Virus record (IMG/VR): IMGVR_UViG_3300011268_000751
Span: 10,955-74,954 of that record
From: a virus
Taxonomy: Duplodnaviria; Caudoviricetes
Length of the DNA stretch: 64,000 bases
Reading direction: 5' to 3' (one strand)
The notes beneath the pieces were generated by a model that was not told where the DNA came from, searched no databases, and saw only the letters and a list, made by a program, of their open reading frames with translations. Made by a program: the position numbers and the translations under genes. Shown here piece after piece: positions 7,201-61,735 of the stretch (its first letter is position 1; every line of letters begins with the position of its first letter).

Positions 7201-10200
7201 ACCCGTTGGGAATATGTATTGACCTGTGGTAATTGATGGATCGAAATTGGTAATAGCAACGGCAACTTGAGTTGCTGATGGAATTGAAGTAATCTTATAA
7301 TATCCATCAGAAGTAGTTCCAATACCAGTGATTTGAATACCATCTCCAATATCACCAGAAATACCACTGGTTGCAATTTGAATTCTGGCGCCAGTTCCTC
7401 CTGGACCGATAACTTCCGGATCAAATTCTAAGAACTCACCATTTGTATATCCAGAACCTTTAGAAATAATATCGACACCATCAACAGATCCAAGTTTTAC
7501 AACAACTTTTGCAGTTGCACCATCCCAAGAACTAGATCCTAAATTAAATAGTTTTACATTATAATATGTTCCATTATTATATCCAGTTCCTGGAACAATT
7601 GAAGAGTAAGTTGCAACACCACTAAATCCATGTTGTCTCTCTAAGGTGATAGTTGCAGTTCCTGATGTTGGGGATGCGAATGATGTAGAAACTCCTGTAA
7701 TTGATAATCCAAGTCCAAAGTCCTTGGCAAATTTATCAATTGTTTCTCTAGTTATACTTCTCTTGAGATCATTTGTTACAACTTGACCGATTGGGAATCT
7801 CTTTGCAAATGTTTTTGCTGCTGGTGGATTATCATCAACATTATCATTATCTAACTGTGGATAAAGGTCAACAACGTGCTGAGCGTATTTTAAATAATCA
7901 AACTCTCCTGGAATAGGATTATCCGCATTCAGAACATATAGATGATAAATTCCATCTTGAACTCCATAAATGAAAGGTGTAATAACATCATTTCGATAGA
8001 TATAATAATTAGAATTTATATCATTCTTTTGGAATCTTGGGAGATCGGCATTTCTGACATTAGTGTTACTTAAAAATATTCCTGGATTTCTAGTTCTTCC
8101 AAAAATATCGGTGGTTTCATATGTGAATGTATTGTTATCAACAATAGCAGTAACTTCAAATGTTCCGTTAAATCCAAGAGTTGGAGCTGCAATTAAGTTG
8201 GTTGTACTCACTACATTGCTGATGATGACAATATCGCCAACTTTTAGACTATGGGGAAGGTCTGCAAATACTAAAACTTCAGTTCCATTTGTGGTGCATG
8301 TGCTAATAAATCTTTGGTTTCTCCTAAAAGCATAATCACCTCTAGTAATTGTATTTGCGGTAAAGTCTGAGATGGTTGATACACCAGTAGTGCTAGACTC
8401 CTGTAAAACAAATCCTGCTAATGGATCTCTTGCGTTTTCTGCTTCCTTTGGAATAACGACTCTTACCTTATAAAGCTTTTCATCTAAACTACGGGAGTCT
8501 GGAATTCTCTTAACAAATGAAACTTCTGTTCTATCAGTTCCAAATCCTGAGGTTCCATCAAGTCCCTTGATTGTGGTGTAAATATCATTGTTTGAATTTG
8601 TATTTACAAACCAGTTTCCTTGAACTAGGTCATACTGAACTGGTGATCCTGGTTCTCCAGGCTCTTTATCTGATACTCTACTAAAAATGTATAGATCCGA
8701 TCCACCATAACAAGTAATGGGAAACCTGATCTCGGCATTTGTTCTAGAAGATGCAAGTTGAATTTCATTTGCACTATATTTGATTGCATAATATTGTCTA
8801 TGCTCTACAAGATTTTCTGGAATATCTCCAGAATCACTAATCAATCTAACTTTTTCTCCATTCTGTAATGAGTGTGCTCCAATATTGAAGACTGTCGAAT
8901 TTAAATCCAAATCTGGATTTGGACCATCAATAACTCGATATAGTTTCTGTGCGCTTTCTGATCCTAAAGCTCTTGTATTAACACCAACTGTAGAGAGTGT
9001 ATTATCTACCATGTAGATACTCGCATCTTTAATTCCAAGAGGAGTTTCTACGAAAACTTTATCGTTTAATTTGGCACCAAGACGATATTGTTGTAGAATA
9101 ATCGGTGGTTTTACGTCTGGGTTTCTAAATCCATAGATGTAAAGATGATTAGAATTATTTGCTGTGCTCGTTAGACCTACATCAATTGAAATCCAGTCAA
9201 TATTTTCTTCTTCTTCAACGTTTGCTCTCGGTCCAATGATCGAAGTTATATAACCTCTATTATCTTTATCGAATGCTTCTGCCTTGTATCCAGTTGCAGC
9301 AAGAGAATATTGTCCGAAGTTTGAGTTGGAGTTTGTAATTGAAGCGTCTCCACCACTTTCGGAGTCAAAGTGTTTCGTAAATCCGATTGCAAAAACAGAA
9401 ACAACCTGAATGAATGAATCATTAGTTAGTTTAATATGACTTGTTTCCCAACCTTTTCTATAAACTGCTCTAGGATCTAAGTGATAAACTGAATTACTAT
9501 CGGTTGAAGAAGATTGTGATGAAAGTTCTGCTCCGCTTACGGTAACACTTGTGTCTAAACCATTATAAACTCTAGAAACAGGATCATATTTTACAAATGC
9601 TCTGTCATCTTTTTGTAGGGAAATTGCAGTAAATTGTGCCGTAACCATCGAACGGAAACCAGTTGCCTTATTACCATCGGCAAACAAACCATTCATGCCC
9701 CACACAGAACGTAAGGAGCAGTTAAAGATATATGGAGATGCTCCAGAAACAGTATCAGTCTCAATCGTTACTGTTGCTGAAGAAGCACCAGGGAATGCTG
9801 GAAGATTAGGTCTTACGAATGGGAGAAGATAGGTAAACTTATTTGGATCTTCATCATCAATCTCTGCAACTTTTGTTGAGATATTATAGTCTTGAGTATC
9901 AACTCCTCTAATCTTAATTGGTGTTCCAACAGAGAATTCGTGTGGTTTTGCAGTTGTTACGGTAACAACATTTGTTGCCGTTAAACCATTTCCAGATTGA
10001 ATTGAAGTAATTTCAAATGGGTCAGTTGCAAATGCACCTACAATTTCAAACTCTGGCCTTTGTGGAGCAATACCTGTTGTACTTGTTGGATATTTGTCAG
10101 AAAAAGGAATTAATCTTCCAGATGCATCATTATATGCATTTCCTAATTTAGCATAATACATCTCAAGGTCGGTGAGAGTATATCCATCAACAATATTAAC

Positions 10201-10921: not shown

Positions 10922-11051
10922 GATTTAATTTCAAAGAAACTCTATAACATAAGTTCCTCTTCAATAAAAACATCATTATTTACAACATCGAATATGCATT
11001 CTGGTTTTAAAGAAAGAATTTCTTCCATTTTTAGTATGAGGCAGTAAGTTT

Positions 11052-11363: not shown

Positions 11364-11396
11364 AGGAGAATTTTCCCATATCTTATATTTATTTTA

Positions 11397-11469
11397 TGCT
11401 CCTTGCGTGGATCGAACACGCCTCAGGCGAATTATGAGTTCGCTGCATTCACCAGATTGCTAAAGGAGC
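11397..11469 (-). tRNA. tRNA with CAT anticodon, most likely tRNA-Ile2 (lysidine type) rather than Met
   Basis: Cloverleaf: acceptor GCTCCTT/AAGGAGC, anticodon arm GCGAA-CTCATAA-TTCGC, T arm GCGTG-TTCGATC-CACGC, A73, no encoded CCA. G1:C72 and no GGG/CCC anticodon stem exclude initiator. Has C4:G69 and C5:G68. Confidence 0.9.
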
Positions 11470-11472
11470 ATA

Positions 11473-11560
11473 TAGTCGCCCAGGGTATCGAACCCTGCCA
11501 AAGGCCCTAATCTGGGGCAAAGGGCTTATAAGGCCCCTCTGAACACCTGTTCTGACGACC
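11473..11560 (-). tRNA. Non-canonical 88-nt tRNA with TAT anticodon (Ile UAU) and long variable arm
   Basis: Acceptor GGTCGTC/GGCGACT + A73; anticodon arm GGGGC-CTTATAA-GCCCT; T arm CAGGG-TTCGATA-CCCTG; variable stem GCCC-CAGATTA-GGGC; short D arm GAAC-AGGT-GTTC; A at position 8. Confidence 0.75.
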
Positions 11561-11573
11561 ATAAACTAGATCA

Positions 11574-11602
11574 ATTATAGAGGATCTGGAACTCTTTGTC
11601 AA
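11574..11602 (-). promoter_or_regulatory. Sigma70-type promoter TTGACA-17-TATAAT driving the tRNA pair
   Basis: Perfect consensus hexamers at 11597-11602 and 11574-11579; the -10 ends 13 nt upstream of the first tRNA. Confidence 0.9.
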
Positions 11603-11997: not shown

Positions 11998-12026
11998 ATT
12001 ATAGGGGGTCCTGGCGCTGGTGTCAA
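11998..12026 (-). promoter_or_regulatory. Sigma70-type early promoter TTGACA-17-TATAAT
   Basis: Perfect hexamers at 12021-12026 and 11998-12003; the -35 overlaps the TGA of the upstream hydrolase. Confidence 0.9.
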
Positions 12027-61294: not shown

Positions 61295-61735
61295 ATGTCA
61301 TATAAAGGAAAATATAAATTAACAAATCCAAAAAAATACAAAGGTGATCCGACAAATGTAATCTATAGATCTTTGTGGGAAAGAAAATATATGAGGTATC
61401 TTGATCTTCATGATAATATTTTAGAATGGTCGAGTGAAGAAATATTCATTTGGTATAAGTCTCCAGTTGATAATCGTCCTCATAGATACTTTCCAGATTT
61501 TTATGTGAAAGAACAAATGTTTGATGGAACAATTCAAAAATATCTTGTTGAAATAAAACCAAAAAGGCAATTATCTCCACCAAAAGAACCAAAAAGAAAA
61601 ACAAAAGGATACATATATGAAGCAATTGAATATGCAAAAAACCAATCAAAATGGGAATATGCAAGAGAATGGTGTAAGGATCGTCAATATGGATTTAAAA
61701 TTTTAACAGAGGATGAATTAAACATCAAGTATTAA
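61295..61735 (+). CDS. gp4: Head completion nuclease gp4
   Basis: YKGKY...NPKKYKGDP.N..YRSLWER..M...WSSEE...HRYFPDF...LVEIKP...NQ.KW; CTAAATA at 61257-61263. Confidence 0.9.
   Translation: MSYKGKYKLTNPKKYKGDPTNVIYRSLWERKYMRYLDLHDNILEWSSEEIFIWYKSPVDNRPHRYFPDFYVKEQMFDGTIQKYLVEIKPKRQLSPPKEPKRKTKGYIYEAIEYAKNQSKWEYAREWCKDRQYGFKILTEDELNIKY

Follow-up and report, generated by a model that had tools for sequence, protein, structure and literature searches.

Two transfer RNA (tRNA) genes that probably both read the rare isoleucine codon AUA lie side by side on the minus strand of the stretch analysed here, a window of 64,000 nucleotides (positions 10,955 to 74,954) from the viral record IMGVR_UViG_3300011268_000751, which represents a marine cyanophage. 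The record is an IMG/VR fragment of 75 kb, about 33% complete and with a GC content of 35%. The window is occupied mostly by tail and baseplate genes, and its closest isolates are the Synechococcus phages S-SRM01 and S-SKS1, followed by the Prochlorococcus phages P-SSM2 and P-SSM5. ARAGORN detects this pair as the only tRNA genes of the window and none in the other 11 kb of the record. The first gene, with the anticodon UAU, would fold into an unusual structure of five helices; the second, with the anticodon CAU, is by its sequence a captured copy of the single-copy tRNA-Ile2 of picocyanobacteria. An initial annotation had described two tandem tRNAs 3 nt apart behind a perfect TTGACA-17-TATAAT promoter, the CAU tRNA lacking initiator hallmarks and carrying C4-G69 and C5-G68, the UAU tRNA carrying C4-G69, A37, A38 and A73. 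All of these features are present in the sequence (Table 1): the promoter is found on the minus strand at 11602-11574, and the tandem spacing is borne out when the UAU gene is read in the register G1 = 11560, A73 = 11473.

Results

The tRNA(CAU) gene and host tRNA-Ile2

In a local search the CAU gene matched the Rfam tRNA family RF00005 with 52.5 bits (E 1.3e-10; family threshold 29 bits). Both a whole-window Rfam search at gathering thresholds and an RF00005 search of its own genome missed the gene, which we took as filter losses and not as absence. The predicted RNA has the canonical 7-bp acceptor stem, 5-bp T stem, T loop and anticodon loop, as well as a D arm of canonical form with an A13-A22 mismatch that is common to the host gene. 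It pairs G1-C72 and C11-G24 and has the anticodon stem GCGAA/UUCGC without GGG/CCC, and is therefore not an initiator; the marks by which initiators are recognized are C1xA72, A11-U24 and GGG/CCC, and G3-C70 is given as a marker of isoleucine tRNAs (Silva 2006, PMC1635315).

Each of three picocyanobacterial genomes contains exactly three CAU tRNAs: an initiator (A11, GGG/CCC, encoded CCA), an elongator of the Met type (C3-G70, loop UUCAUAA) and a third class with G3-C70, which is the class that the phage gene matches. Across positions 8-65, 55 of the 58 bases are identical to tRNA-Ile2 of Prochlorococcus and marine Synechococcus, including the unusual D arm UAGCAAUCUGGUGAAUGCA, and among 185,579 species genomes the 18-mer of the anticodon arm occurs mostly in Cyanobacteria; a blastn search of E. 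coli genomes with the gene returned no match. The acceptor stem has been rewritten, with GCUCCUU/AAGGAGC in the phage for GGGGGUC/GACCCCC in the host, so that five of the seven pairs differ. Other viral copies of tRNA-Ile2 carry the acceptor stems GCUCCUU (45 copies), GCUUCCU (25), host-like GGGGGUC/U/AU (26) and rarer variants; all of these variants still pair, all have A73, and the body is kept (also in loci L191, L149 and L161). The antisense of the gene (11396-11469, plus strand) is matched by Rfam RF04354 (Plastid-ycf2 5'UTR) with 34.4 bits. The consensus of that family presumably resembles the reverse complement of plastid trnI-CAU and so picks up tRNA-Ile2 genes of the cyanobacterial type.

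Lysidine and TilS determinants

The initial annotation had called the CAU tRNA TilS-type on the strength of C4-G69 and C5-G68. The label stands by orthology to host tRNA-Ile2. The argument from the two pairs does not, since these are determinants of the E. coli type I TilS: although present in the phage gene they do not define the family in the host group, whose tRNA-Ile2 carries G4-C69 and G5-C68, and we ruled them out as evidence of identity. The host TilS proteins, of 344-345 amino acids (aa), have a PP-loop domain, with a weak match to the substrate domain in one of the two proteins checked and no Pfam match to TilS_C, the acceptor-reading C-terminal domain, in either. Type II TilS enzymes do without CTD2, through which the acceptor stem is contacted (PMC12514573), and the host enzyme appears from its domain content to be of this type. 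Since such an enzyme would have no acceptor-contacting domain, the rewritten acceptor stem of the phage copy need not block modification, and it is plausible that the copy remains a TilS substrate. A TilS gene was searched for in the 75-kb viral record, itself about 33% complete, and was not found.

The tRNA(UAU) gene and its fifth helix

The UAU gene combines a 7-bp acceptor stem closed by G1.U72, a single linker base (A8), a 4-bp D stem with the tetraloop AGGU, an anticodon loop CUUAUAA (U33, A37, A38), the extra hairpin, a variable segment of 6 nt and a 5-bp T arm with the loop UUCGAUA. It thus departs from the canonical D arm, which has a loop of 7-11 nt and two linker bases, and from the canonical variable region, a loop of 4-5 nt or a class II arm. 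The minimum free energy of its fold is -38.1 kcal/mol (z -2.7). Rfam RF00005 gave no match to the gene even at E <= 10, the T arm alone being seen. The extra-hairpin loop presents GAU (11512-11510) at positions equivalent to an anticodon, although the bases corresponding to U33 and A37 are A and U, respectively.

ARAGORN calls the gene at 11561-11472, a register with U1-A72 and U as discriminator, which we rejected: in 26 of 43 relatives CCA is encoded straight after the equivalent of A73, and this sets both the register and the length of the spacer (3 nt). In the window copy U-1 and A73 could form an eighth pair, although in those 26 relatives the A in question is followed by CCA. A U at position -1 is found in 32 of the 43 relatives and fits the usual preference of RNase P.

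Relatives were collected by a pattern scan of viral contigs, which yielded about 85 sequences; 43 of these, a subclass with the tiny D arm, were aligned. Over the alignment 99.5% of cells are paired, each of the five helices at 98-100%, and changes on both sides were seen in 19 of 28 pairs; when structures were slid by 1-3 columns, pairing fell to 39-46%. All acceptor and T-stem pairs are formed in 43 of 43 sequences, and pairs 44-58 and 46-56 of the extra-hairpin stem covary. For most relatives the search pattern itself fixed the extra-hairpin loop and the UAU anticodon, so that their invariance is there circular; CAGAUUA and UAU are also kept, however, in copies retrieved through the neighbouring CAU gene, and the S-SKS1 loop reads CCGAUUA. 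Two partners are equally possible for the AGAG downstream of the D hairpin, namely the U-run that follows the anticodon stem and the CUU that follows the extra hairpin (either pairing holds in 98-99% of the sequences, all changes being one-sided); these alternatives (about 11539-11537, 11521-11519 and 11502-11500) allow two junction folds.

A73 is present in all 43 sequences, and G1.U72 in 40 of the 43 five-arm genes and, among phage tRNA(UAU) genes of the ordinary kind, in about 53 of 57, unlike host tRNA-Ile1, host tRNA-Ile2 and the phage CAU copy, all of which have G1-C72. Pair 4-69 is A-U in 31 of the 43 and C-G in 8; C4-G69, which the initial annotation noted in the UAU tRNA and listed as an IleRS element in E. 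coli, is hence not conserved in the family. Five-arm UAU genes also lie unannotated in the GenBank genomes of S-CBWM1 (L002, 1505-1591), S-SKS1 (L003, 1502-1589) and DSL-LC02 (L004, 1455-1547). A one-base loss has left the S-CBWM1 copy with an anticodon loop of 6 or 8 nt; this copy is missed by ARAGORN and may be decaying.

The tandem in other cyanophages

For a census of the tandem, viral contigs were searched with the D arm and anticodon loop of tRNA-Ile2 alone, and 109 loci were examined by ARAGORN. A tRNA(UAU) gene lies within 120 nt upstream of tRNA-Ile2 in 75 of them: in 58 the spacing is 0-3 nt (50 ordinary genes of 72-73 nt and 8 five-arm genes), and 17 more fall within the 120 nt. A tRNA-Leu(UAA) gene comes after the CAU gene in 27 of the 109 loci. 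Five-arm and ordinary tRNA(UAU) genes share the same slot and co-occur in none of the stretches fetched (84 and 72 loci). From this shared slot we argue that the two forms are functionally equivalent, and that function in this host group does not require the GAU hairpin.

The homologues of the CAU gene are mostly labelled tRNA-Met in GenBank, and tRNA-Ile2 in one case (Sf-FS3); in published genomes such as that of S-TIM5 the tandem is mislabelled tRNA-Ile plus tRNA-Met. Our literature searches returned no paper describing a dual-route AUA tandem or its link to a Phd-like gene. In eight loci (L280, L292, L295, L310, L325, L333, L359 and L365) a 24-nt palindrome, ATTCGCTATTTGCGAATAGCGAAT, stands between the UAU and CAU tRNAs, accompanied in some contigs by a structured element of about 50 nt; the palindrome is absent from the window.

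Codon use and the meaning of AUA

ATA makes up 20.9 per 1000 codons in the open reading frames (ORFs) of the window (27% of Ile codons), about 14 times the value in Synechococcus MIT S9451 (1.5 per 1000; 3% of Ile codons), whereas two Prochlorococcus genomes reach 25-36 per 1000 (33-43%). An excess of ATA over the host, which the dual supply proposed in the initial annotation called for, is thus found relative to Synechococcus but not relative to Prochlorococcus. The rationale of codon supply is correspondingly strong if the host is a Synechococcus, but weak if it is a low-GC Prochlorococcus. The initial annotation had also pointed to ATA recurring in GIGT motifs; the isoleucine of GIG is ATA in 10 of 34 instances (29%), against a background of 27%, so that there is no enrichment.

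Homologues of a conserved tail protein show Ile in 81.5% of the cells aligned with its ATA sites, as compared with 81.9% for ATT and 81.7% for ATC, although these homologues are themselves standard-code translations and shared ATA codons could inflate the match. Four of the ten ATA sites fall in columns of invariant Ile. Recoding of AUA to Ser or Leu was rejected on the ground that ATA sites align with Ile as ATT and ATC do. The hosts have TilS and tRNA-Ile2, and no tRNA(UAU) was found in the host genomes examined.

Promoter and neighbouring genes

The -10 element of the promoter ends 13 nt ahead of the tRNA(UAU) gene. Perfect TTGACA-17-TATAAT arrangements occur twice in the window, against 0.15 expected from shuffled sequences, and two were reached in 2 of 100 shuffles. 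In related loci the position is retained, with hexamer matches of 12/12 in L016, 11/12 in L099 and 10/12 in L026, L116 and L046. On this sequence evidence some relatives have the promoter at the equivalent position, and in others the tRNAs are probably part of the transcript of the Phd-like gene.

Table 1. Features of the tRNA tandem and its surroundings in the 64,000-nt window
Feature	Coordinates	Strand	Details
Five-helix tRNA(UAU), 88 nt	11473..11560	minus	anticodon 11530-11528; A73; CCA not encoded
Extra hairpin of tRNA(UAU)	11504..11518	minus	stem GCCC/GGGC, 7-nt loop CAGAUUA, between anticodon arm and variable segment
Spacer between tRNA genes, 3 nt	11470..11472	minus	sequence UAU
tRNA(CAU), 73 nt	11397..11469	minus	anticodon 11436-11434; A73; CCA not encoded
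Sigma-70-type promoter	11574..11602	minus	TTGACA 11602-11597, 17-nt spacer, TATAAT 11579-11574
Second perfect TTGACA-17-TATAAT promoter	11998..12026	minus	precedes DUF7294 and Phd-like genes
Phd/YefM antitoxin-like ORF, 66 aa	11599..11799	minus	Pfam PF02604, 28.9 bits, E 1e-6 (cut-off 29.8)
DUF7294 ORF, 69 aa	11762..11971	minus	Pfam PF23966, 62.3 bits; first gene of small cassette
Acidic ORF, 103 aa	11052..11363	minus	begins 33 nt past tRNA(CAU)

No terminator was predicted between the CAU tRNA and the 103-aa ORF, which may therefore be co-transcribed with the tRNAs; its homologues stand downstream of the tRNA pair in L081, L084, L086, L077, L035, L062 and S-SKS1. Together with what lies upstream, the tRNAs make up a small cassette of early type, in the order perfect promoter, DUF7294 ORF, orphan Phd/YefM-like ORF and tRNAs, and the TGA stop of the Phd-like ORF falls inside the -35 hexamer. 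No toxin gene adjoins the Phd-like ORF, its neighbours being the DUF7294 ORF and the tRNAs. Homologues occupy the same place in S-TIM5 ('Phd-AT') and DSL-LC02 ('antitoxin'), and the DUF7294 ORF is conserved upstream in L077, L084, L086, L081 and L066. In 70 of 110 viral loci with tRNA-Ile2 (L277-L390) the distance from the end of the Phd-like ORF to the first tRNA is estimated at 0-57 nt, mostly 0-11, and the linkage is equally tight where the tRNA(UAU) gene is an ordinary one. Elsewhere in the window, an ORF with the N-terminal domain of a TnsA-like endonuclease (61295-61735, plus strand) is located where the structural block ends, in the opposite orientation. The 11 kb of the record beyond the window (L125) contain a ResIII/DEAD helicase ORF and a weak N6-methylase-like ORF at 7342-8616 and 8645-9046, respectively.

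Discussion

We favour, with moderate confidence, the reading that both tRNAs decode AUA as isoleucine, one dependent on TilS and the other independent of it, and that they are expressed from a host-type promoter to meet the AUA demand of the phage. Dual supply had been proposed in the initial annotation. What carries it now is the correspondence of the CAU gene to host tRNA-Ile2, the presence of TilS and absence of tRNA(UAU) in the host genomes examined and the recurrence of the tandem in 75 of 109 loci; the arguments from C4-G69/C5-G68 and from the GIGT motifs have fallen away. Under this reading the host RNA polymerase would transcribe the pair from the early-type promoter as a short two-tRNA RNA, possibly extended into the 103-aa ORF. 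The tRNAs would be released from it by RNase P and 3' trimming and given their CCA ends by the host's CCA-adding enzyme. Host TilS would convert C34 of the CAU tRNA to lysidine before charging by IleRS, and the UAU tRNA would read AUA directly with no need of TilS. The pair would thereby raise the AUA-decoding capacity available to a 35%-GC phage, above all in high-GC Synechococcus. Transcription, processing, lysidinylation and the charging of the UAU tRNA with isoleucine are steps that we infer from the genes themselves. The redundancy may have been selected as host TilS or tRNA-Ile2 supply became limiting; TilS of a low-AUA, high-GC bacterium is about 1000-fold slower than that of E. coli (Table 1 of PMC12514573).

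Several observations weigh against this reading. With five of seven acceptor pairs differing from the host, acceptance of the CAU copy by TilS or IleRS is not guaranteed, and the UAU RNA conforms to no standard tRNA model. As amber suppressors in E. coli, six species of allo-tRNA(UAU) with a possible five-stem junction were inactive (Mukai 2017, PMC5389517). A low-GC Prochlorococcus host would use ATA as much as the phage or more, which weakens the supply argument, and the alignment of ATA sites with Ile carries the limit stated above for standard-code homologues.

The five-arm RNA might not decode at all, acting instead as a decoy or regulator tied to the antitoxin-like gene or as a processing signal for mRNA 3' ends, with the CAU tRNA alone serving translation. 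This would agree with the failure of the Rfam tRNA model, with the inactivity of the five-stem-junction allo-tRNAs and their frequent location near toxin-antitoxin genes (Mukai 2017), and with the short distance between the Phd-like ORF and the first tRNA. We nevertheless consider it quite unlikely: the 7/5 stems, the GUUCRANNC T loop, G18G19, U33 and A37 in a 7-nt loop and A73-CCA are all kept, every copy retrieved by way of the adjacent CAU gene has the UAU anticodon, and ordinary tRNA(UAU) genes show just as close a linkage to the Phd-like gene. Doubt could equally be directed at the CAU tRNA, which, if it escaped TilS and kept C34, would be charged by MetRS as an elongator tRNA-Met, the pair then covering AUA and AUG. 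Its altered acceptor pairs, the finding that MetRS of E. coli accepts tRNA-Ile2 in its unmodified form (PMC1635315, PMC12514573) and the tRNA-Met labels of most homologues all point in that direction. Yet the D arm and anticodon arm, which a short type-II-like TilS would read, are nearly identical to those of the host gene, the host-type acceptor stem GGGGGUC is retained in many viral copies, and tRNA-Met is the default label for CAU, from which the Sf-FS3 homologue is an exception. Moreover, the phage uses ATG less (9.9 per 1000 codons) than the hosts do (18-21 per 1000), so that no extra tRNA-Met is needed, and we regard this possibility as very unlikely.

That the five-arm RNA is a recoding tRNA, recognized through its extra arm by SerRS or LeuRS so that AUA is read as Ser or Leu, seems to us extremely improbable. 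The extra arm, the D tetraloop and a possibly lengthened anticodon stem do recall allo-tRNAs (PMC5389517), in which UAU is the commonest anticodon, the 12-bp acceptor branch is divided 8/4 or 9/3 and G73 or U73 is typical of serine identity (PMC5389517, PMC7609411); allo-tRNA(UAU) genes have been described as having 'possible five-stem-junction structures' and as often lying near toxin-antitoxin genes (Mukai 2017, PMC5389517). To the likeness in anticodon, long extra arm and D tetraloop may thus be added a neighbourhood of toxin-antitoxin type. The phage gene differs in its 7/5 geometry, A73 and fixed 7-nt CAGAUUA loop, and the allo-tRNAs, which we compared by their published description, come from Acidobacteria. 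Full covariation of the 7/5 geometry and A73 in 43 of 43 sequences led us to reject membership of the allo-tRNAs or of class II. The nematode nev-tRNA(UAU), which reportedly belongs to an alternative genetic code for leucine (PMC3333845), shares the long extra arm and the UAU anticodon; it is a eukaryotic RNA with a class II body, whereas the phage extra arm is not class-II-like and the AUA positions of the phage correspond to Ile. A recoding tRNA is further at odds with ATA sites that match Ile as often as ATT and ATC, four of ten in invariant columns, and with a slot that in most cyanophages holds an ordinary tRNA(UAU).

A more far-reaching version of dual supply, which we hold to be unlikely, would make the Phd-like gene and the two tRNAs a counter-resistance unit that frees AUA decoding from host supply, with the hairpin of the five-arm form displaying GAU, the ordinary isoleucine anticodon, as a copy that does not decode and thereby recruiting IleRS or another tRNA-Ile factor to a tRNA that it would handle poorly without the hairpin. 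The idea arises because a reduced level of tRNA-Ile2 or TilS would allow hosts to starve phages, in the manner of tRNA-Leu(UAA), the lack of which, as a rare-codon tRNA, blocks cyanophage translation in marine Synechococcus WH5701 (Zborowsky et al. 2025, PMC11726456). Its IleRS-decoy part loses weight because ordinary tRNA(UAU) genes are roughly eight times as frequent in the same slot and host group, and because the hairpin loop has A33 and U37 in contrast to the U33 and A37 of a genuine tRNA-Ile loop.

The dual supply that we favour draws on two known routes of AUA decoding. The CAU gene resembles bacterial tRNA-Ile2 of the TilS route in its anticodon, its loop CUCAUAA, A73 and the absence of initiator marks, and differs in being encoded by a virus, in its replaced acceptor stem and in adjoining a second AUA reader. 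TilS-independent tRNA-Ile(UAU) is known from Mycoplasma mobile (PMC3575796) and from a B. subtilis suppressor (PMC3919564). Those tRNAs, which read AUA without lysidine, likewise have UAU in a normal 7-nt loop; the phage gene differs from them in its minimal D arm, extra hairpin and near-universal G1.U72, and the organisms concerned are without TilS or tRNA-Ile2, whereas picocyanobacterial hosts have both. Cyanophage tRNA genes were reportedly treated by Enav and colleagues in 2012 as genes for codon supply or host range, and the present case is alike in that the tRNAs of a low-GC phage would serve codons ending in A, of which high-GC Synechococcus makes little use.

Codon supply is the usual explanation for phage tRNAs; here two probable readers of one rare codon, biochemically different from each other, stand together, adjacent in most cyanophage contigs that carry a host-type tRNA-Ile2. 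The five-arm form widens the range of tRNA shapes that may suit translation, and the close association with an antitoxin-like gene suggests a possible tie between tRNA supply and defence. Culturable phage-host pairs exist in S-SKS1 on WH7803, where the phage has the five-arm UAU gene with the CAU gene, and S-TIM5 on WH8102, where the UAU gene of the pair is an ordinary one. If both tRNAs work, the pair would provide a natural test of the acceptance of a UAU anticodon by IleRS, and would reveal a bottleneck of AUA decoding, in tRNA dosage, TilS capacity or both, in the most abundant phototrophs of the ocean.

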